Made by a program: the position numbers and the translations under genes
In this document: positions 2,714-63,935 of the stretch, one piece after another
How the letters are laid out: each line of letters begins with the position of its first letter
Position numbering within the stretch: position 1 is the stretch's first letter
Source of the DNA: Patescibacteria group bacterium
GTDB taxonomy: Bacteria; Patescibacteriota; Microgenomatia; 0-14-0-10-38-17
Assembly (NCBI GenBank): GCA_050947035.1
Contig: JBMNVW010000001.1
Span: 48,967-112,966, forward strand
DNA: 64,000 bases
Direction of reading: 5' to 3'
Notes under the pieces: model-generated
What the model was told of the DNA's origin: nothing
The model's database searches: none
What the model saw: only the letters and a program-made list of their open reading frames with translations

Positions 2714-4153
2714 TTAATCTTGCTGATATTTTATCATATCGCCAATCTTAAAATCAACGGCCGGAGAAAATGTTGCCCCAAACTCTTGGCCTTTTTTGAC
2801 ACGGTCAATTTTCTTCGATCCCTGTTGTAAAGAAACAATTTTAGTTTTTTTCTTCTTCCCTCCCTGGTTAATAATTGTTACTCTGGTTCCTTTTTCAATT
2901 TCACCTAAAATAACTTTAGCTCCTGCCACTCGGCCATCAGGAACGGTAAAATCGGCAATAATTTCTGCTTGACCGAGAATTTTTTTCTCCTCTTCGATTG
3001 TTTCCAAAGCTTTCAACTTTTCTTCAATAGACTGAAGTAGCTCATAAATTATTTCTTCCGTCTGGACATCAACTTCTTCGGCTTCAGCCAAATCAGCCAC
3101 TCGCCGAGAAAGAGAAACATTAAAACCAATAATTTCCGCCCCACCTGAAGAAGCAAAGAAAACATCAGAATCATTAATGTCACCGACTCCACTTTCAATT
3201 ATAGAGATTTTCTTCTGGGGGATTGAATTAATCAATGCCTCCAGAGTTCCTTGAGTATCGGCCTTAACAACTAATCTTAATAGGGTCTTTTCTTCTTGAT
3301 CAGCGGAGACTTCCTTTAAAAAGGGACGATCCGATTTGCCTACTTCAAGGGCAGGATCAGAAATTAAGCTTCCCGCCGCCAAGGGTTTGGTAAAACCCAA
3401 AATTGATACCGGCTGACTAATAAGGGCCTCTTTAATTGGCTGACCAGAATCATCAAAAAGGGCCCGAACCTTAGCCTCCTCTTCTTCGGCAACTAATTTC
3501 TGACCAACCAATAGCTTGCCCTGCTTAACAATCGCTGTTACTAGCATCCCTCTTTTGACATCAAGACCAGATTCAAGTACCACTCCTTGAAACGGCTTCT
3601 GGGGTTGATAGTCAAGTTCATTCATTTGAGAAAGCAGGACAATCATTTCTAAAAGTTCGTCAATTCCTTCCCCAGTTTTGGCCGAAACGGGCACCAAAAC
3701 AATATCTCCACCTCGATCCTCAGCAACAATCCCAAATTGGGTTAATTTATTTTTAACTTCTTCTTGATTGGCATTGGGTAAATCCATCTTGTTTAGGGCA
3801 ATTAGAAAGGGTACACCGGCACTTTTTATATGGTCAAGACATTCTTTGGTTTGAGGCTTAATTCCCTCATCGGCGGCAATAACCAAAACAACTAAATCGG
3901 TAATTTTAGCTCCTTGGGCCCTCATTTTCTCAAAAACCTTGTGACCAGGAGTATCAATAAAAGTAATTTTTTGATCATTGAAAACAATCTGATAAGCACC
4001 AACGTGCTGGGTAATACCACCAGCCTCCTTGTCTTGCAGTTTGCTTTGACGAATCCGATCTAAAAGAGATGTTTTACCATGATCAATGTGCCCCATTAGG
4101 GTAACGACAGGGGGGCGAGAAGGGGTGGAGGAATTTGTCTTTTTCTTGACCAT
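2714..4153 (-). CDS. infB: Translation initiation factor IF-2 (short form lacking N-terminal domains)
   Basis: 479 aa with a GTPase G-domain (GHIDHGKTSLLD, DTPGH, NKMD) followed by typical IF-2 domains; directly downstream of nusA. Confidence 0.95.
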   Translation of the reverse strand: MVKKKTNSSTPSRPPVVTLMGHIDHGKTSLLDRIRQSKLQDKEAGGITQHVGAYQIVFNDQKITFIDTPGHKVFEKMRAQGAKITDLVVLVIAADEGIKPQTKECLDHIKSAGVPFLIALNKMDLPNANQEEVKNKLTQFGIVAEDRGGDIVLVPVSAKTGEGIDELLEMIVLLSQMNELDYQPQKPFQGVVLESGLDVKRGMLVTAIVKQGKLLVGQKLVAEEEEAKVRALFDDSGQPIKEALISQPVSILGFTKPLAAGSLISDPALEVGKSDRPFLKEVSADQEEKTLLRLVVKADTQGTLEALINSIPQKKISIIESGVGDINDSDVFFASSGGAEIIGFNVSLSRRVADLAEAEEVDVQTEEIIYELLQSIEEKLKALETIEEEKKILGQAEIIADFTVPDGRVAGAKVILGEIEKGTRVTIINQGGKKKKTKIVSLQQGSKKIDRVKKGQEFGATFSPAVDFKIGDMIKYQQD

Positions 4154-5732: not shown

Positions 5733-6458
5733 ATGGCCCCAACTAATCGTCAAATTGCCATCTTGAAAGCTCTAATCGAAGAATACATTGAAACAGCCGA
5801 ACCCGTTTCTTCTGATGCGGTAGAAAAAAAATATAACCTTGGAGTTTCTCCGGCTACCATTAGAAATGAAATGGCCGTTTTAACTGAGGAGGGCTTCATC
5901 AAAAAACCTCATGTTTCGGCCGGACGAGTCCCTACCCCAATGGGGCTCAAGTTTTATATTCAAAATCTTCTGGAAACCAAGCCTGTTCCCGTTACTCAAG
6001 AAGTCACGGTAAAAGAGCGGGTTTGGGATTATCGCCAAGAAGTTAATAAATTAATTGACGAAGCCCTTAGTGAGTTAGCCAGATTAACCGGTTCGATGGC
6101 TTTGGCGATATCAGAAAAGGACCAAGAGTTTAATTGGTCGGGGGTAGCTAATATTTTAGATTTCCCCGAATTTTGGGATATTGACCTAACCCACGCCCTA
6201 CTTTCTCTTTTAGATGATGTTTCTTTTTGGCAAAAATTAGCCAATCAAGTTCACGGCGAAGCTCGAGTTAGCGTTTTATTGGGGGATGATTTTGGCAACG
6301 AAATCTTAGAGCCTTGTGGTTTTGTTTTTACTAAAATTAAGCTTGGCTCCAAAGACTATATCTTGGGAATTGTCGGCCCTAGCCGCTGTCCATACCAACA
6401 AGTTATTCCTTTAGTTGATTATTTTGGCCGATTAATTAGTGAAATTGGCCAAGAGTAA
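5733..6458 (+). CDS. hrcA: Heat-inducible transcription repressor HrcA (short, 241 aa)
   Basis: MAPTNRQIAILKALIEEYIETAEPVSSDAVEKKYNLGVSPATIRNEMAVLTEEGFIKKPHVSAGRVPT is a winged-helix HrcA N-terminus; first gene of the hrcA-grpE-dnaK-dnaJ operon. Confidence 0.85.
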   Translation: MAPTNRQIAILKALIEEYIETAEPVSSDAVEKKYNLGVSPATIRNEMAVLTEEGFIKKPHVSAGRVPTPMGLKFYIQNLLETKPVPVTQEVTVKERVWDYRQEVNKLIDEALSELARLTGSMALAISEKDQEFNWSGVANILDFPEFWDIDLTHALLSLLDDVSFWQKLANQVHGEARVSVLLGDDFGNEILEPCGFVFTKIKLGSKDYILGIVGPSRCPYQQVIPLVDYFGRLISEIGQE

Positions 6459-53677: not shown

Positions 53678-53747
53678 TGCGGGGTAGTGTACGGTGGCAC
53701 GTGAGGCTCATAATCTCACAGATCAGGTTCAACTCCTGACCCCGCAA
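53678..53747 (+). tRNA. tRNA with CAT anticodon (Met elongator or Ile2-lysidine type; not initiator-like)
   Basis: Acceptor TGCGGGG/CCCCGCA, short D-arm, anticodon stem TGAGG/TCTCA with loop CTCATAA (CAT), T-arm TCAGG-TTCAACT-CCTGA, discriminator A, no encoded CCA. A TATAAT -10 lies at 53661..53666. Confidence 0.7.
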
Positions 53748-53781
53748 CACTAGTCTTTAGTCGTTAGTCATTGGTCGTTGG
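53728..53781 (+). repeat. 54-bp perfect direct repeat, copy 1 (3' 20 nt of tRNA-CAT plus 34 nt of flank)
   Basis: TTCAACTCCTGACCCCGCAACACTAGTCTTTAGTCGTTAGTCATTGGTCGTTGG. Confidence 0.9.
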
Positions 53782-54400: not shown

Positions 54401-54474
54401 GGCAGGGTAGCTCAGGTGGTTAGAGCAGGCGAATCATAACCGTCAGGTCGTCGGTTCAACTCCGACCCCTGCCA
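54401..54474 (+). tRNA. tRNA with CAT anticodon (second, distinct species)
   Basis: Acceptor GGCAGGG/CCCTGCC, D-arm GCTC-AGGTGGTTA-GAGC, anticodon stem GGCGA/CCGTC (A31.C39 mismatch) with loop ATCATAA, T-arm GTCGG-TTCAACT-CCGAC, discriminator A, followed by a T5 run. Confidence 0.7.
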
Positions 54475-54478
54475 CTTT

Positions 54479-56564: not shown

Positions 56565-56648
56565 ATCACCAAAAACAAACAACTGAATTGTCCAAAGTAA
56601 ATAAACCAATGGAGGATGGTAAGGACGAAACGAACACAATACCCCCAG

Positions 56649-56723
56649 TGGGTCAGGGTGGATTCGAACCACCGAACCTCGATTTTATAAGAATCGCGCT
56701 CTTACCAACTGAGCTACTGACCC
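56649..56723 (-). tRNA. tRNA-Ile (TAT anticodon, AUA-reading)
   Basis: Minus-strand sequence GGGTCAG-TA-GCTC-AGTTGGTAA-GAGC-G-CGATT-CTTATAA-AATCG-...-GGTGG-TTCGAAT-CCACC-CTGACCC-A. The anticodon loop has U33, TAT at 34-36 and A37. Confidence 0.65.
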
Positions 56724-56763: not shown

Positions 56764-59106
56764 TTATAATTTAGCTCGTCGGGTAATCTGCGCCTCAATT
56801 ACCGCTTTGTCCTTGCCATACTTTAGTCGAGACAGCTCAATAATATTCTTAGCCAGCTCCGGTTTCTCTAAAACCTTCTCCTTAGTCATATCCTTAGTCA
56901 AATCAAGAGAGAATGGCGGCACCGGTTCATTATTAACAATTGTTTTAACATAGGCGTTAAACCTCTCGATATTAAGAAGATCGTTTTCAGAAAAATCGGG
57001 CTGGAACTCATGTTGAAGGTAGGAGGCATCGGCTACCCCCACCCGAAAAGAAATCAAGCTCCCCACATTGCCAAAAACAGCGTTTTTAACTTCTTCTTCC
57101 ATCTGACCAATAAACTGATTGGCCACTGCCAAATTAAGATGATATTTTCTGGCTTCGGATAAAATCTGGGCAAAGTCTGGAGTAGCAAAATTTTGGAACT
57201 CATCAACATAAAGATAAAAATCGCGCCTTTTCTCTTCGGGAATATCCTGTCGGCTCATGGCGGCAATTAAAATCTTGGGTACCAAAACCAAACCCAAAAA
57301 GCTTGAGTTTTCTTCGCCAATCTTGCCTTTAGCCAAATTAATTAAAAGAATTTTCCCCTCATCCATTACTTTTCTAAAATCAAAAGATGATTGAGATTGA
57401 CCGATAATGTTGCGCATCATACTATCAGTAACAAAACGGCCAAATTTGGAAACAATATAATCCAAAACTTCGCTTTTATGAAAGTCTGATGTTTGAGCAA
57501 TCTGATCGGTCCAATAACGTTTAACCATTGGGTCCTTAATTTTAGGCAGTAACTCTTGAACATAGGAAACATCGGTTAGGACCCGAACCACCTCAACAAA
57601 AGTCGCTCCCGGTTCCGACATTACCGTTAACATCGCATTCCTAATAGCATGCTCAAAACGGGGACCAATAATACCGGTTTTATAAGGATCATAAAGCTTG
57701 TACATCAAATTAATAATTGAAGAAACAACAAAGTTTTTTTGCTCCTCAGTATAAGCCTCCAGTAAATTAAGACCCATGGGGCGAGCAGTATCGGAAGGGT
57801 CAAAATAAATTACATCTTCGGCCCGATCGGCAGGAATTCTAGGCAGAATTTTTTCAATCGTATCGTGGGGATCAATAAAACAAACTCCTTTGCCTTCTTC
57901 AATATCCTGGACAATCATCTGTTTTAATAGCTCGGACTTACCGGTGCCAGTTTTACCAATAATATAAAGGTGGCGACGACGATCGTCATCAGATAAACAA
58001 ACCGGACGAACCTCACCCCGATGAACGCTTTTGCCTAAATAAAGACCGGTTTTGGGCACTTCCGACGGCACTGGGGCTCGTTTGGCATTAAGCCAAGCAA
58101 TATTGGGCGTTTCAACAGTCTTGTTAGGAAGATGAAATATCGTCGCCAATTCGGCTGAATTAAGAATAATCTTTTTTCTATTCCATGGCCAAAGCGGCCA
58201 ATATCGATAAATAAAATTAATCATAAAAGCTCGCTTCCACCAAACTTTTTTACTGCTCAGGCCATTTTGGTCAGAATTAAATTGAGAAAGAGCGCTTTTG
58301 ATTGATGACAAATGCGCCTTGGCTTGATCGGTAGTTTTAGAACAAACCACTACCCGCAATTCCACCTCAAAACCGGGCTTAGCACACTTTTCTTCTATTT
58401 TTTCCAAAGTCTTACTATCCATCTTAAACTCGGCCTCTTCAGGATCAGCCTCTTTCTTTTTGGTCGAAGATAAAAACGACTTACCAATTTTTTGCCACTT
58501 ATTTCCTGCTGGCGATATTAAAATTTGGATAGCCACTCCTTCACCTTCAGCTAATTTAGATAAGGTTGAGGTTAAAGAAGAAAGGGGATCAACCGAAAAA
58601 TCCTGATAGGTTTTAATTGGATAAAAGGGTGAGTTTTTGAATTCGAAGGTTTTATAAACGACTTTGCCTTTTTGGGAGAAAATATTATACTCATCAATCC
58701 GTTTAATTACCGCATTCGGATAAAGACCATAAATTTGTCTCTCTAAAAGATTAACTTTTCCCTGAGGAATGGCAAAATAAAAACGAATGCTGTCCGGAGT
58801 ACCGACAATTTCGGCACTAAAGAAAAATTTCGGCTTTAAAAAAGAAAATTTACCGCCAGCTTTTAAAGAGTGTAGGTTAGTAAACAGTTGTTCGGCGGCG
58901 TCAATTTTAATTTCATTATCTCGAGGCAAAATTACTTGCAGTAAGACCAAATCAAGAGAGTGTTTTTCCCGATTTCTTTCCCGCCAAAGCAAAAACAAAA
59001 AATAAAACAAAAAACCCAAAAGGGCAAGACAAAAAAAACCCACTACCAACAAGATAATAGAACGGGCTAGAAAATAAAATAAATCATTTAAATTATAAAT
59101 CGTCAT
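56764..59106 (-). CDS. VirD4/TraG/TraD-like type IV coupling protein family membrane ATPase (FtsK-HerA superfamily)
   Basis: 780 aa; N-terminal TM helix, Walker A IIGKTGTGKSE, Walker B LYVDEFQNF. Translationally coupled to the upstream small ORF (ATGA overlap). Confidence 0.55.
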   Translation of the reverse strand: MTIYNLNDLFYFLARSIILLVVGFFCLALLGFLFYFLFLLWRERNREKHSLDLVLLQVILPRDNEIKIDAAEQLFTNLHSLKAGGKFSFLKPKFFFSAEIVGTPDSIRFYFAIPQGKVNLLERQIYGLYPNAVIKRIDEYNIFSQKGKVVYKTFEFKNSPFYPIKTYQDFSVDPLSSLTSTLSKLAEGEGVAIQILISPAGNKWQKIGKSFLSSTKKKEADPEEAEFKMDSKTLEKIEEKCAKPGFEVELRVVVCSKTTDQAKAHLSSIKSALSQFNSDQNGLSSKKVWWKRAFMINFIYRYWPLWPWNRKKIILNSAELATIFHLPNKTVETPNIAWLNAKRAPVPSEVPKTGLYLGKSVHRGEVRPVCLSDDDRRRHLYIIGKTGTGKSELLKQMIVQDIEEGKGVCFIDPHDTIEKILPRIPADRAEDVIYFDPSDTARPMGLNLLEAYTEEQKNFVVSSIINLMYKLYDPYKTGIIGPRFEHAIRNAMLTVMSEPGATFVEVVRVLTDVSYVQELLPKIKDPMVKRYWTDQIAQTSDFHKSEVLDYIVSKFGRFVTDSMMRNIIGQSQSSFDFRKVMDEGKILLINLAKGKIGEENSSFLGLVLVPKILIAAMSRQDIPEEKRRDFYLYVDEFQNFATPDFAQILSEARKYHLNLAVANQFIGQMEEEVKNAVFGNVGSLISFRVGVADASYLQHEFQPDFSENDLLNIERFNAYVKTIVNNEPVPPFSLDLTKDMTKEKVLEKPELAKNIIELSRLKYGKDKAVIEAQITRRAKL

Positions 59107-59441
59107 GACTGCTCCTTAAAGCCAACTTGGGCGCCAAAAATTTTAACCAATCTTTTCGACCATTCGGCCAACCAACGCCAAGAATCTTCTATTTTAGTTC
59201 TTAAGCCCTGTTCATATTCTTCTAGGCTTAAGGGCAAAACAACCTTAGGGTCTTGAGCCTTAGAAGAGGTTACTAAAGTCTGGCCGGTTTGGTCGTCTTG
59301 AATCGGCTGAATTAAATCATGCTCAGCTTTTTTTACTTCTTCAATATGACCGGCCATTTCCGGAGGAATACCCGAGGGTTTTATTTCTATAATCGGATAT
59401 TGATCAAGAGGAGCTAGTCGTTCTTTTTTGGCCGCTGACAT
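59103..59441 (-). CDS. Hypothetical small protein coupled to the T4CP-like ATPase
   Basis: 112 aa; its stop overlaps the start of the 56764..59106 gene. Confidence 0.3.
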   Translation of the reverse strand: MSAAKKERLAPLDQYPIIEIKPSGIPPEMAGHIEEVKKAEHDLIQPIQDDQTGQTLVTSSKAQDPKVVLPLSLEEYEQGLRTKIEDSWRWLAEWSKRLVKIFGAQVGFKEQS

Positions 59442-59462: not shown

Positions 59463-60215
59463 TTACTCCCGTCCTCGCCAAATAGTTTGGGGCAAAATTT
59501 CCTGAACGGTCTTTAAAAATTTTTCTTCTTGATTATAGGAAAAGGGGGTTAGTTTGCTGAACTTATTGTCAAGACAATTTTGGGGGCGAAAACTTTGCAA
59601 CGCCCAAAAACGGTCTTTTTCTTCAATCTCTTGCTCAACAAAAAAAGCCTTAAGCTGATTGGCCATTATTAACAACTCTTTTTCATTGTGAAGACTAGGA
59701 ACCACCGTTGTCCTAAAATCATATTGGCCGCTACCGGTTAAAAACCAATCTAGCACTAGTTTAAAACTCTCCTGAACCTTTTCTGACGGAAATTTCACTC
59801 CAACTGCTTCGGCGTATCTTGACCAGCTAATTTTATAATCTAGAGCAAAATAATCAACCACACCTGCCGTTATCAATTTCTTAACTATTTCGGGCCGGCT
59901 GCCATTGGTGTCTAACTTAAGAGCCAGGCCTCGATCTTTTATCTTTTGACAAAACCCAACAAGATCTTTCTGCAAGGTTGGTTCGCCCCCAGTAATACAA
60001 ACCCCATCCAAAATTTTTTGACGAGAAGATAAAAAATTAAAAAAATCCTCTTCTTTTACCTGCTTATAATCAGATTTTTCAAACGCCTCACGGGAAAGAA
60101 TGTCTTTGTTGTGACAAAAAGGGCAAGCAAAATTGCAACCAACCGTAAAAACTGTACAAGCAACCTTGCCAGGATAATCAACCAAAGTGGTTTTTTCTAA
60201 TCCTCCTAATAACAT
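59463..60215 (-). CDS. nrdG: Anaerobic ribonucleoside-triphosphate reductase activating protein (radical SAM)
   Basis: 250 aa, CNFACPFCHN (CxxxCxxC) cluster motif; downstream of nrdD. Confidence 0.85.
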   Translation of the reverse strand: MLLGGLEKTTLVDYPGKVACTVFTVGCNFACPFCHNKDILSREAFEKSDYKQVKEEDFFNFLSSRQKILDGVCITGGEPTLQKDLVGFCQKIKDRGLALKLDTNGSRPEIVKKLITAGVVDYFALDYKISWSRYAEAVGVKFPSEKVQESFKLVLDWFLTGSGQYDFRTTVVPSLHNEKELLIMANQLKAFFVEQEIEEKDRFWALQSFRPQNCLDNKFSKLTPFSYNQEEKFLKTVQEILPQTIWRGRE

Positions 60216-60241
60216 TTTAAGTCGACCGTTTTTAATTTAAT

Positions 60242-60401
60242 CTCAAACCTTATATTCTTTTCTATCACTGTATTCGGAAGACTTGCCGTTATTCCATTGA
60301 TTAACCGGACGTAAATAACCGACAACACGAGAATAAACTTCGCAAGGAGTACGATCGGCGTTTGTTACTTTTTTGGCAGATTTTTTTGCTTTTTTGTTCA
60401 T
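60242..60401 (-). CDS. Separately encoded NrdD C-terminal glycyl-radical tail (mini-ORF with its own SD; needs a +1 shift at 60300-60302 to read the conserved WNNGK segment)
   Basis: ATG at 60401 is preceded by AAAGGGGGTGA. It encodes MNKKAKKSAKKVTNADRTPCEVYSRVVGYLRPV; frame 0 stops at 60288, whereas the +1 frame continues NQWNNGKSSEYSDRKEYKV* to 60242. Together these match the NrdD C-terminus (compare E. coli RRVCGYLGSPDARPFNAGKQEEVKRR). Confidence 0.6.
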
Positions 60402-60623
60402 TTTTCACCCCCTTTATAAAAAATTTATAATTGTTAAAAATAATTTTTTATAAAGCCCACCAACGATTGCGACAAGAGCCATATACGAATAGTATTAAAA
60501 AGGCGACTGCGAAAATTGGGTGGGGCCCACCTTTTAAATTCAAAGCCCTAAGCTCAAAATTAATTTTTAAATTTTAAAATTTCTTTTGGAATTTAGAGTA
60601 TTTGGAATTTCCAGGAAAAGTGT

Positions 60624-63600
60624 TTACTTTTCCTGGTACCCTATTTCTTCATCGCACTTAGGACAAAATTGCCATTCACCCTTAAGGTAGCCATGAATTG
60701 GACAAATCGAAAAAGTAGGCGTAATCGAAAAATAGGGAAGCTTATAATTTTGAGAAACTTTTTTTATTAAGTTCTTAACGCTTTCGGTATCCGGCAGGCT
60801 TTCTCCTAAAAAACCATGTAAAACTGTATTATGAACAAACACCAGACAGTCCTTGCCAGCCAAATAATTATGGTTTTTCTTGGTCATCAAGTCATAGAAC
60901 AATTTGTTTTCTTTGGGCTTCAGCTTGGTTGTTCTCTTAACCCGCACCACCGGCAGTTGTCTTTTGGTTCGCCGTGATAATTGATTATTTATTCTTGAAA
61001 AATTAAAAGTATTTGTTAATCTATCGCTTATTCTCGTCATCTCATAAGCCGGAATTTTCAATCGCCAGATGTTTTTTTCATTTTTTCTCTTGGTCGGTTT
61101 TTCACTCTTGCTAATTAATATCCCGGCCAGAGTAAATATTTCTAATAAGTCGTCCGTTAATTTAGGGGAAACCGTATAATATTCAAAACTCCCGTCCCGC
61201 CTGGACAAATGTCCGTCACTATCCATTAATCCCGATAAAAATGAAAAAATATTATCGTTGCCAATTATATCTTTTACTTTCTTGGGCACCCCAACACTAT
61301 AAACCTTGCTGCCCGGCAAAAAACCCTTTTTTAGAAAAAAATCTACCGCTTCTTTCTTTGAGGTACTAACCTCCAGCAACCGATCGGATCTTTTGTCATT
61401 TTTTATAACATTAACCATACAGCCAAAATTGTCATTTAAAACTTGGGCAACTTTATTCATCGCCTCTTGATGTTCACTAAAAAACCTCAGTTTATATTTT
61501 TTAAGCTTATTACCGCCCCGATTGTCAATAAATTCTGACAGACAACCATCGCCAATATAAAAACCAATTAACCACATCAATTGATTTTCTAGCTCTCCCT
61601 TATTCGGTAAAATATTATTATTATTTTGTAAAATATAGTCTCCTTTTTTAAGTTCATCGGCCCGCCTGGTAACTACCTGATACTTGGATAGCTGGTGGTA
61701 TTTTTTTCGACAATCAGGATGATAACGCAAATGGGCGGCAAAAGCTTTAACATTTATAACCGGCTGATCACAAATCGGACATTTTTTAGCAACCCGTCTT
61801 TTTTTCATGACAAAAAATGGATGCCAATCAGAAGTAACAATATCAAGACCTCGCTCTCCTTCTATTCTTACTTTCCTCTTGCGCTCAACGTCAATTTCAA
61901 CCGCCTCCAACACTTCGTCCCACTCCGAAACCTCTTTCCCGGAATGATAACTTACCACCCGCAAAGGGCGCAATTTATTAAATTTCTCTACAATCTCCTC
62001 TATGGGCATCAACCCCTTATCGGTTAAAACTTTATTGCCTTCTTCGATACAACCTCCCGTATACTTACACTGCAACTTATCTTGCAAGTCTAGAGCTTCA
62101 AAAATATCCGTCGTATAATCAACTGGTAAATGTGAAGAATTGGTGTAATAAGGGGAGGCGCCATTTTCCTGATAATTCTTTTCGTTGGCACAAATTATTT
62201 TAGGAAATTGTTCTTTATCAAGGCGAGCAAAACGATAGGCAGTACTCTCGGCGGGGGTAGCTTCCAAATTAAACATTTCGCCTGTTTCTTGTTGATAAGC
62301 CAATAGTTTTCCTCTCATATAATCCATTATCTCAAGAGCAAAGGCTTGTCCTTCGGGATCGGCAATATTTTTACCTAAAAAATTAACCATCGCTTCATTC
62401 ATACCGTTTAAGCCGATCGTATTAAAATGGTTGCGCCAATAAACTTTGTTGCGCTTTTTTATGTCTTGTAAATAATGACGACAATAGGGGTAAAGCCCTT
62501 TTTCGGTAAATTCTTCTACGGTTTCTCTTTTGATCATCAAAGAATCTTTAGCCAAATCCATTAAGTGCCCAAGAAGAGTAAAAAACTTTCTTTTAGCAAA
62601 CCCTGGTGTCTTGGAATTAGTCTTAGCCAAATAACCAATTCGAGGTAAATTAATGGTTACCACCCCCAAAGAGCCAGTTAAGGGGTTAGCAGAAAAAAGA
62701 CCACCTCTTCGGCGCAATTCCCGATTATCCAAACGAAGTCGGCAGCACATACTCCGGGCATCATCTGGGTCCATATCAGAATTAACAAAATTAGAAAAGT
62801 AAGGAATACCGTATTTTCTAGTCATCTCCCAAACCGGCTCTAAGTTTTTATTATCCCAATCAAAATCTTTGGTAATTGAATAGGTGGGGATTGGGAAAGT
62901 AAAGACTCGGCCTTGAGCATCACCTTCCATCATATTTTCGGCAAAAGACCGATTGATCATGTCCATCTCTTTTTGGAAATCCTTATACTTGTCTTTCGTT
63001 GGCTTTCCGCCGATAATAACCATCTCTTCTCCCACCATCTTGGTTGGGTGAATATCTAGGGAAATATTAGAAAAAGGGGTTTGAAATCCGACCCGAGTAG
63101 GAACGTTCATATTAAAAACAAATTCCTGAAGGGCTTGCTTAGTCTGCTTATAAGTCAGACCATCATAGCGAACAAACGGGGCCAGGTAAGTATCAAAATT
63201 GGAAATGGCTACCGCCCCGGCCACTTCCCCCTGAATGGTATACATAAAATTAACAATTTGGCCCAAGGCGGAAGAAAAATGCTTGGGGGGGGCGCTATTA
63301 ACCTTACCGGAAACACCACCAAAACCCTTAGCCAAAAAATCTTTTAAATCCCAACCGGTACAATAAGCCGAAAGAGAAGACAGGTCATGAATATGAAGAT
63401 CACCCTGGCGATGAGCTTTTCTTATTTCCCGAGAATAAATTTTATTAAGCCAAAAGTTAGCCGAAATAATGCTAGCCACATGGTTATTTAAGCCCTGCAA
63501 AGAATAAGTCATGTTGGCATTTTCCTTCACTCGCCAATCACCTTGATTTAAATATTTTTCCGTTAGCTCATCAGCATCCACCAAACTACTAACACTTCTT

Positions 63601-63935
63601 AATTTATGGTGAAGTTGACGATAAAGGGTATAGGCGTTATGAACCTCGTCGTGGGAATGTTTAAGCAAGGTTTGCTCGACAATATCCTGAACTTGTTCGA
63701 CTTCGGGAACAATCGAAGAATTAAAGCGCTTTTCTAGTTCTGAAATCACCTCTTTGGCTAATCGACGAACCTCTTGGGCATCATCTTTACCGGCGGCTTT
63801 AAAAGCAGACTTAATCGCCCGGGCAATTTTGCTTGGGCTAAAGGCAACTACTCGACCGTTTCTTTTTTTTATCTTGGCAATTTTTGATTTTATTGCTTTT
63901 CTGGCCATCAATAACACCCTAAAAACCCTCTTCAA
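60624..63935 (-). CDS. nrdD: Anaerobic ribonucleoside-triphosphate reductase (class III) with ATP-cone, containing an intein; ORF ends just after the zinc ribbon, before the glycyl-radical motif
   Basis: 1103-aa ORF. ATP-cone N-terminus (KIKKRNGRVVAFSPSKIARAI), NrdD core, KYTGG|[intein]|TVLHGFLGE, and a C-terminal CPIHG...CPKC zinc ribbon, then stop. The likely start is Met10 (63908). Confidence 0.9.
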   Translation of the reverse strand: MKRVFRVLLMARKAIKSKIAKIKKRNGRVVAFSPSKIARAIKSAFKAAGKDDAQEVRRLAKEVISELEKRFNSSIVPEVEQVQDIVEQTLLKHSHDEVHNAYTLYRQLHHKLRSVSSLVDADELTEKYLNQGDWRVKENANMTYSLQGLNNHVASIISANFWLNKIYSREIRKAHRQGDLHIHDLSSLSAYCTGWDLKDFLAKGFGGVSGKVNSAPPKHFSSALGQIVNFMYTIQGEVAGAVAISNFDTYLAPFVRYDGLTYKQTKQALQEFVFNMNVPTRVGFQTPFSNISLDIHPTKMVGEEMVIIGGKPTKDKYKDFQKEMDMINRSFAENMMEGDAQGRVFTFPIPTYSITKDFDWDNKNLEPVWEMTRKYGIPYFSNFVNSDMDPDDARSMCCRLRLDNRELRRRGGLFSANPLTGSLGVVTINLPRIGYLAKTNSKTPGFAKRKFFTLLGHLMDLAKDSLMIKRETVEEFTEKGLYPYCRHYLQDIKKRNKVYWRNHFNTIGLNGMNEAMVNFLGKNIADPEGQAFALEIMDYMRGKLLAYQQETGEMFNLEATPAESTAYRFARLDKEQFPKIICANEKNYQENGASPYYTNSSHLPVDYTTDIFEALDLQDKLQCKYTGGCIEEGNKVLTDKGLMPIEEIVEKFNKLRPLRVVSYHSGKEVSEWDEVLEAVEIDVERKRKVRIEGERGLDIVTSDWHPFFVMKKRRVAKKCPICDQPVINVKAFAAHLRYHPDCRKKYHQLSKYQVVTRRADELKKGDYILQNNNNILPNKGELENQLMWLIGFYIGDGCLSEFIDNRGGNKLKKYKLRFFSEHQEAMNKVAQVLNDNFGCMVNVIKNDKRSDRLLEVSTSKKEAVDFFLKKGFLPGSKVYSVGVPKKVKDIIGNDNIFSFLSGLMDSDGHLSRRDGSFEYYTVSPKLTDDLLEIFTLAGILISKSEKPTKRKNEKNIWRLKIPAYEMTRISDRLTNTFNFSRINNQLSRRTKRQLPVVRVKRTTKLKPKENKLFYDLMTKKNHNYLAGKDCLVFVHNTVLHGFLGESLPDTESVKNLIKKVSQNYKLPYFSITPTFSICPIHGYLKGEWQFCPKCDEEIGYQEK
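60828..62051 (-). mobile_element. Intein (408 aa) with LAGLIDADG homing-endonuclease domain inserted in NrdD after KYTGG
   Basis: Begins with Cys (CIEEGNKVL) and ends VFVHN followed by the +1 Thr; LAGLIDADG blocks LIGFYIGDGCL and FLSGLMDSDGHL; internal CPICD...HPDC zinc knuckle. Removing it restores the conserved NrdD motif KYTGGTVLHGFLGE. Confidence 0.85.

Follow-up and report, generated by a model that had tools for sequence, protein, structure and literature searches.

We examined a stretch of 64,000 nucleotides (nt) from the genome of a Patescibacteria group bacterium (assembly GCA_050947035.1, contig JBMNVW010000001.1), hereafter the window, in which nrdD, the gene for the class III (anaerobic) ribonucleotide reductase (RNR), is broken in two. 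The large reading frame, which we call the nrdD body, ends in ...FCPKCDEEIGYQEK with a TAA stop codon straight after the zinc ribbon; the terminus is also given as ...CPKCDEEIGYQEK and, longer, as ...ICPIHGYLKGEWQFCPKCDEEIGYQEK, each followed by the stop, and it precedes any glycyl-radical motif. The motif is carried by a second open reading frame (ORF) of 52 amino acids (aa), the nrdD tail, which lies beyond a non-coding spacer and has its own Shine-Dalgarno (SD) site and ATG. The gene for the radical S-adenosylmethionine (radical-SAM) activase NrdG follows, so that the operon order is nrdD-body, nrdD-tail, nrdG (Table 1). The original prediction for this DNA, made from the letters alone, had described the stop at 60624 between zinc ribbon and glycyl-radical motif, the spacer of 222 nt, the strong ribosome-binding site and a mini-ORF with an RVxGY motif, and all of these were found, the motif reading RVVGY.

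The body matched Pfam NRDD (PF13597) at E = 4.7e-177 with 590 bits (cut-off 26.2), and among the NCBIfam models NF006126 with 970 bits (cut-off 548) and TIGR02487 with 506 bits (cut-off 326). It holds an ATP-cone, the catalytic barrel, the cysteine finger loop (ARSMCCRL) and the zinc ribbon, and all four putative zinc ligands lie within it. The RV.GY glycyl-radical motif was not present on this chain; as SRVVGY it is on the separate 52-aa ORF and is thus found in the system as a whole. Judged by sequence, all features tested are those of a class III RNR, except that the radical motif is off the catalytic chain. The downstream nrdG matched TIGR02495 (NrdG2) with 178 bits (cut-off 131; E = 1.1e-52).

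The tail product, MNKKAKKSAKKVTNADRTPCEVYSRVVGYLRPVNQWNNGKSSEYSDRKEYKV, is encoded in one unbroken reading frame that includes RVVGY, with the codon of the radical Gly28 at 60318-60320. A +1 frameshift had been proposed within the mini-ORF; there is none, and the NQWNNGK... continuation lies in the same frame. An in-frame TGA two codons 5' of the tail ATG makes this ATG the sole possible start. The peptide is homologous to the last ~35 residues of NrdD: it corresponds to positions 532-562 of the 562-position Pfam NRDD profile, that is, to the last 31 (E = 2.7e-10), and it aligns with residues 612-646 of Thermotoga maritima NrdD (4COI; RIVGY), the stretch that holds the radical glycine. The locus very probably encodes a class III RNR made from two genes of one operon, with the radical glycine on a small, separately translated subunit.

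Cys20 of the tail (60342-60344), eight residues before the radical glycine (x-C-E-V-Y-S-R), was conserved in 90% or more of the free tails that were aligned. A cysteine also occupies this position in most contiguous relatives of the clade, and T. maritima NrdD is without one there. Cys20 is a fifth cysteine, beyond the four zinc ligands that are seemingly all in the body.

Table 1. Positions of the features of the split nrdD locus, numbered from the first letter of the window
Feature	Coordinates	Strand	Remarks
nrdD body	60624..63908	minus	ATG 63908, TAA 60624-60626; 1094 aa including the intein
Intein, 408 aa, with LAGLIDADG homing-endonuclease domain	60828..62051	minus	from C to VHN, then T; inserted between KYTGG and TVLHGF of the body
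Zinc ribbon (C-P-I-H ... C-P-K-C)	60654..60704	minus	from the sequence and alignment with contiguous homologues
D-E-E-I-G-Y motif	60636..60653	minus	directly 3' of the zinc ribbon; specific to split bodies
Stop-codon hairpin, CCAGGAAAAG-TAAACA-CTTTTCCTGG	60611..60636	minus	perfect stem; TAA at the tip
Non-coding spacer between body and tail	60402..60623	minus	222 nt
Predicted leader hairpins H1 (60456-60524) and H2 (60412-60455)	60412..60524	minus	counterpart in relative L084 at 3456-3578
SD site of the tail gene, AAAGGGGGTGA	60405..60415	minus	4 nt 5' of the ATG at 60401
nrdD tail, 52-aa free-standing glycyl-radical peptide	60243..60401	minus	stop TGA 60243-60245
nrdG, radical-SAM activase	59463..60215	minus	intact; 27 nt downstream of the tail

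Recurrence and conservation of the split

Free-standing tails were sought with the 52-aa peptide among 5.8 billion proteins. There were 351 matches, and the best 120 were analysed: all were 40-78 aa long and 118 began with Met. Among these 120 the core R-[TQ]-x-C-E-V-Y-S-R-V-V-G-Y-L-R-P-V-x-Q-W-N-x-G-K was almost invariant, with varying leaders and ends. An exhaustive search of 1.84 billion cluster representatives (50% identity) with a tail profile gave 5045 matches; the best 150 were sized, and 149 of them were 48-115 aa long, the remaining one being a 711-aa NrdD. The bodies gave the matching picture. When the closest 120 homologues of the intein-free body were inspected, 95 ended after the ribbon without a glycine motif and the other 25 were contiguous.

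A scan of species-representative genomes provided 80 loci. Contiguous loci were the majority, with genes of ~700-740 aa and ~5 residues between CPKC and CEVYSRVVGY, and about 20 of the 80 were split at exactly the same point. The split loci came from Patescibacteria (including Saccharibacteria, Dojkabacteria, Beckwithbacteria and Falkowbacteria), Leptospirales, Anaerolineales, Hippea and DPANN archaea, and from two metagenome-assembled genomes (MAGs) labelled Gammaproteobacteria. Among these ~20 loci the gap from stop to start was -4 to 41 nt in most and 115-222 nt in a minority, and most tails had an ATG with a recognisable SD site (for example AAGGAGGTGA and AAGGTGGTGA in relatives). The gene directly downstream of the tail was nrdG in 19 of 20 split loci, often with a 4-nt overlap; the intact nrdG that the original prediction had taken as a sign of use is thus a general feature. 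The alignment of orthologous loci, which had been proposed as a check, showed that the split and the SD site and ATG of the tail recur in relatives and that the length and content of the spacer and the hairpin at the stop codon vary. These results indicate that the split is a recurrent, conserved architecture, widespread in Patescibacteria and recurring elsewhere. They point to an operon of three cistrons, each initiated on its own, and speak against splicing as a general explanation. NCBIfam holds no model for the small subunit.

Two variants were observed among the split loci. In a Nanobdellota archaeon (L013, ~5771-5776) body and tail are in frame and are parted by a TGA and then an ATG (...EVEVN, stop, MERTKCEV...); this is the smallest split form, with GAGGTGA inside the end of the body coding sequence, and read-through of the stop codon would yield a single chain. 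In a second split type, seen in three Leptospirales loci (L030, L062 and L080) and one Anaerolineales locus (L053), the second CxxC of the ribbon is replaced by C-P-Y-E-H and the tail is without the conserved cysteine (VPVEVYSRVVGYF). This type forms its own group in the tree, beside contiguous Syntrophomonas enzymes.

A stop ahead of an essential motif resembles a fresh pseudogene, and a few other loci (L026, L075) do look frameshifted or broken. The proposal that the window holds a decaying nrdD, or an assembly or sequencing artefact, with the mini-ORF as a remnant has nevertheless a negligible probability. The 52-aa peptide is encoded, as an exact match, in three further assemblies. The nrdD, tail and nrdG region is 100% identical in Logan SRR31066156 and ENA ERZ773285, and it is preserved in a diverged strain, an NCBI Patescibacteria MAG of 99.3% identity whose 33 differences leave the stop and spacer unchanged and include one synonymous change in the mini-ORF. 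Assembly error is excluded because three further assemblies carry the same split locus, and the homopolymer sequencing error that had been offered as one explanation falls with it. Compared with syntenic relatives, the 37 codons of the tail core had 16 synonymous but only 2-3 non-synonymous differences, and the ARSMCCRL finger-loop motif was present in the window body and in 20 of the 20 split bodies that cover the region. The tail is under purifying selection, and the locus is neither an artefact nor a pseudogene. Early pseudogenisation, also among the original options, is excluded by the strong purifying selection on both parts together with the intact catalytic motifs. Furthermore, the motif specific to split bodies and the SD site and ATG of the tail are conserved, at least 149 distinct clusters of free-standing tails and 95 tail-less bodies exist, and an intact nrdG is adjacent.

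The motif in question is D-x-E-I-G-[Y/W/F], with which the extension of split bodies beyond the ribbon opens. This extension measures 7-37 aa (median 10; 9 aa in the window). Among 95 split bodies D was found in 94, E in 91, I in 91, G in 92 and Y/W/F in 90, and the motif was absent from contiguous forms with short linkers. On the other side of the break the tails have a Met-led leader of 5-42 residues (~16 aa in the window). Natural fused intermediates with long linkers also exist (P0306, P0314, P0315, P0328 and L078); in some contiguous proteins the linker holds both elements, for example CPKCDEENGYNKAKGAKKRKIERTRCEIYSR in P0306, and it is expanded in L078, the contiguous sister of the split L041. 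A complementarity of charge between the extension of the body and the leader of the tail was considered by eye and was inconsistent.

In a neighbour-joining tree split forms stood at several separate positions, namely the window's Patescibacteria group, the Leptospirales with CPYEH, and DPANN archaea beside contiguous relatives. A first tree had hinted at one all-split clade and hence a single ancient origin; with denser sampling, split and contiguous forms were interleaved among the closest 106 bodies, and the single origin was rejected. The break most likely arose by creation of a stop and a start in an expanded linker, and the one-gene and two-gene states appear to have interconverted many times. 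The linker between ribbon and glycine loop would expand first; stop and start would then arise inside it, or be lost again, repeatedly.

The spacer between body and tail

The stop codon of the body sits in a hairpin that can be drawn with a 10-bp stem and a 6-nt loop, or with 11 bp and a 4-nt loop in which the T of TAA pairs and the AA is looped out. The perfect 10-bp stem of the original prediction is there, and the loop has 6 nt; the coordinates in Table 1 replace the earlier 60612-60637. About 1.3 hairpins of equal quality are expected by chance in the window, so that its placement at the stop codon is its one notable feature. It is kept with one loop change in L094 and L095, where the downstream sequence is unalignable, is degenerate in L092, and is absent in L084, L088 and L096.

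In the syntenic clade (UvrD, nrdD, tail, nrdG, a 112-aa ORF and a DUF8128 ATPase) the spacers measure 24, 90, 123, 124, 222 and 304 nt, and the only portion broadly shared is ~30 nt beside the SD site. A further ~125 nt of the window spacer is common to the L084-L087 group at ~86% identity. This shared part is predicted to fold into the two leader hairpins, H1 and H2; their stems show two compensated pairs, four one-sided changes and none broken, with all eight substituted positions still pairing, in what is a weak comparison of two sequences. Spacers of other relatives hold unrelated GC-rich hairpins. The coding strand of the spacer showed no promoter or intrinsic terminator consensus, and the stop hairpin is without a T-run.

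The two parts might be rejoined, either by splicing of the spacer as a small self-splicing intron or by a hop of the kind known from T4 gene 60, with ribosomes leaving at the AAG that precedes the TAA in the hairpin and resuming close to the SD site; a single-chain NrdD would result. The hairpin is kept in L094 and L095 while the sequence downstream is not, an in-frame AAA codon lies between SD site and ATG, and a group I intron is known in T4 nrdD (PMC2988022). Against this, an Rfam cmscan of 60100-60800 with E up to 10 gave only chance-level matches to small RNAs (best E = 0.22) and no intron or riboswitch, and a scan of the whole window at gathering thresholds found four tRNAs only. The covariance-model search suggested with the original prediction thus found no intron in the spacer, and an intervening element, one of its options, also fits poorly with the gaps of -4 to 41 nt in most split relatives. 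Spacers of the same clade differ in length and are unrelated in content, three relatives (L084, L088, L096) have no hairpin, and in other split lineages the stop and start codons overlap or lie side by side. Relatives keep the ATG and SD site of the tail, and its leader evolves in the manner of coding sequence. Hopping is documented over ~50 nt, not 222 (10.1101/2022.08.31.505936). Hopping as the main mechanism was rejected on the relatives without a hairpin or with 24-nt gaps, and rejoining in either version is very improbable. Of the earlier option of programmed frameshifting or reinitiation, the frameshift is gone and separate initiation, at the tail's own SD site and ATG, stands.

Two other kinds of element were considered and rejected. 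One was a repeat of the miniature inverted-repeat transposable element (MITE) or repetitive extragenic palindromic (REP) kind; the spacer has no copy elsewhere in the window, where only short AT-rich matches occurred. A split intein acting by trans-splicing would need halves totalling ~130 aa or more, Cys or Ser at +1 and a terminal Asn; the extensions of 9 aa and ~16 aa are without intein motifs, and the sole intein, 1.2 kb upstream in the body, is complete. The spacer is read as an enlarged intergenic region that collects small palindromes, rather than as a splicing element. Its lineage-variable hairpins may act on the stability of the mRNA or on the relative expression of body and tail.

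The intein, which the original prediction did not mention, was identified by matches to Intein_splicing, LAGLIDADG_3 and TIGR01445/01443, and it holds a Cys/His-rich insert (CPICDQ...HLRYHPDC). Its splicing would reduce the body from 1094 to 686 aa. The orthologues L084-L087 (689-692 aa) are without it, and P0277 and P0279, whose bodies are 85% identical, share both the intein and its site. The intein junction patterns gave no match in other relatives of ~990-1020 aa, which may hold a different insertion. In four loci (L032, L036, L052 and L057) the tail-bearing open frame has only 154-208 codons and also spans the last ~60 residues of the body; its upstream end therefore lies near the position of the window's intein, not at the zinc ribbon.

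Upstream of nrdD lies a UvrD-type helicase with a PD-(D/E)XK domain. On the 3' side of nrdG (56764-59441, minus strand) follow a 112-aa ORF without a Pfam match and a 780-aa DUF8128/DUF87 ATPase, in a synteny kept across close relatives (L001, L084, L088, L092). A tRNA-Ile with anticodon TAT (UAU) lies at 56648-56723 on the minus strand, with two genes for CAT-anticodon tRNAs nearby (53678-53748 and 54401-54475). A UAU tRNA-Ile is uncommon in bacteria, most of which read AUA by a lysidine-modified CAU tRNA.

Proposed assembly of the two-part enzyme

In the enzyme that we propose, the body would contribute ATP-cone, barrel, cysteine finger loop and zinc ribbon, and the 52-residue peptide, translated from its own SD site, the glycine that becomes the radical. 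The peptide would bind the body non-covalently and place its glycine loop in the barrel beside the finger-loop cysteine, as the C-terminus of a single-chain NrdD does, and NrdG would install the radical on it. The D-x-E-I-G-aromatic extension is a candidate docking element that may help to hold or position the detached tail. Oxygen cleaves glycyl-radical enzymes at the radical glycine, and a plausible benefit of the split would be that a cheap peptide of 52 aa is lost in this way and the mature body of 686 aa (1094 aa with the intein) is spared. Cryo-electron microscopy and hydrogen-deuterium exchange of the NrdD of P. copri revealed a mobile glycyl-radical domain that can become wholly disordered (PMC11226230), which makes a non-covalently bound tail plausible. 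An AlphaFold model of the body joined to the tail had the class III fold, with a mean local confidence (pLDDT) of 77, a predicted template-modelling (TM) score (pTM) of 0.74 and TM scores of 0.6-0.73 to solved NrdDs, and its junction (residues 686-705) was predicted to be disordered.

Several points weigh against this proposal. The association of body and tail and the activation of the free peptide by NrdG are inferred only, from the sequence. The joined AlphaFold model was of low confidence at the glycine loop, the cysteine finger loop and the junction, and thus does not bear on the docking. The zinc site of E. coli NrdD is reportedly needed for radical formation, and a detached peptide may need the assembled complex. 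A second, contiguous nrdD may lie beyond the 64 kb seen. The trees carry no support values, and the number of split events is thus not fixed. Finally, a cheap, replaceable radical carrier would be a plausible selective advantage, but frequent switching between split and fused forms fits near-neutrality equally well.

This last point leads to the explanation that the split is a neutral gene fission, in which body and tail assemble once and permanently and bring no repair or regulatory benefit. It differs from our proposal only on why the split persists, and we consider it a strong contender that falls somewhat short of even chances. In its favour, close relatives include split and contiguous forms in interleaved positions, from which easy switching follows; a disordered junction is predicted, and the spacers vary greatly in length and content. 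Against it, the D-x-E-I-G-aromatic motif is kept by 90-94 of 95 split bodies and is lacking in contiguous forms with a short linker, which suggests adaptation to the split, and the same break point is found in distant lineages.

A more elaborate possibility, which we put forward tentatively and hold to be rather doubtful, is that the peptide serves as an exchangeable cartridge for the radical. It would be charged by NrdG, either free or bound to the body, and once cut by O2 at the radical glycine it would leave the body and a new copy would take its place. If so, anaerobes with small genomes at oxic-anoxic interfaces could resume the synthesis of DNA precursors with the large, intein-bearing body that they already have. 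The tail would dock at the D-x-E-I-G-aromatic motif, and its own SD site and structured leader would allow it to be made in excess. Such an arrangement would be the first built-in self-repair architecture of an RNR and a natural minimal substrate for studies of activase recognition.

Relation to known systems and significance

The described single-chain NrdD and NrdG systems (T. maritima 4COI/4U3E, phage T4 1H78, P. copri 8P23) have the same domain order and the same nrdG partner. In the window, by comparison, the chain is broken between zinc ribbon and glycine loop and the radical glycine is on a separate 52-aa product; the body gains the D-x-E-I-G-Y extension and the tail a Met-led, Lys-rich leader.

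For pyruvate formate-lyase (PFL), small autonomous proteins are known that hold the glycyl-radical motif of the large enzyme and nothing else of it, namely GrcA/YfiD and Y06I of phage T4, and the tail is like them in this. GrcA has ~127 aa, is encoded away from pflB and belongs to a formate lyase, whereas the NrdD tail has ~50 aa, lies between nrdD and nrdG and belongs to an RNR. Beyond NRDD, the only Pfam match of the 52-aa peptide was a weak one to a lipoprotein family (E = 0.035), with no PFL-type family, and the tail profile matched NrdD chains in the PDB. The tail is thus a free-standing protein with a glycine motif, as GrcA is, but it lacks homology to PFL and, within the window, a partner with its own glycine domain. 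For GrcA, activation by the cognate radical-SAM activase and action in trans with the large protein are documented (PMC8683613, PMC13450708), and both probably apply to the NrdD tail. GrcA supplements, after oxygen damage, a PFL that has its own glycine domain; here the body has none and the peptide would be obligatory. According to a 2026 review, spare-part proteins are known only for formate lyases.

The peptide of the window could likewise be a spare part, with a complete single-chain NrdD elsewhere in the genome that the peptide, perhaps with the truncated body, rescues after cleavage by oxygen. We regard this as improbable to a high degree. Our view is limited to 64 kb of the genome, and within this window neither a second nrdD nor a second tail is present. 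Patescibacteria have small genomes, in which a further class III RNR would be unusual. The adjacent body has no glycine motif of its own and would need the peptide to work at all, and body, tail and nrdG form a standard nrdD-nrdG operon with a break; the precedent is GrcA, which acts in this way for PFL (PMC8683613). The original prediction had listed a split NrdD with a trans-acting, GrcA-like peptide first among its options. The split is borne out; the spare-part aspect is not, since the peptide is the sole glycyl-radical segment of the enzyme and thereby an obligate small subunit.

The class II enzyme NrdJa/NrdJb of Pseudomonas aeruginosa is likewise a cellular RNR divided at a single specific site, with its two genes side by side in one operon. 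Both polypeptides are required, the C-terminal piece binds near the C-terminus of the large piece, and in 2015 the pair was called the only split RNR of a non-viral organism (PMC4520616). NrdJb (229 aa), however, carries a redox-active cysteine pair and a zinc finger, not the radical site, and the RNR class is different. Phage nrdD genes are also interrupted, by a group I intron with I-TevII in T4 and in three pieces in Aeromonas phage phiAS4, and homing-type elements are found in the gene there as the intein is in the window. The described phage interruptions are introns or inteins that restore one chain, or an unexplained recent fragmentation (PMC3653736, PMC2988022). At the break in the window, in contrast, there is no splicing element, the position of the break is conserved and both pieces have translation signals of their own. 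In a search of full-text literature, with subscription-only papers outside its scope, no description of a split NrdD tail was found.

The interest of the locus is in the assembly of glycyl-radical enzymes; new chemistry is not implied. Because annotation pipelines without a model for the small subunit are in use, split loci risk being read as truncated or broken when the metabolism of Patescibacteria and DPANN archaea is inferred, and surveys of RNRs based on full-length proteins may under-count or misjudge split enzymes. The spare-part idea, so far restricted to PFL, would be extended to ribonucleotide reduction, and the two-gene form offers a ready system for activase recognition and docking of the radical loop. 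In the current picture a glycyl-radical enzyme is one chain, with a C-terminal domain that has to swing out to the activase and then buries the radical in the barrel. A natural, separate radical segment of ~50 residues would show that covalent linkage is not required.

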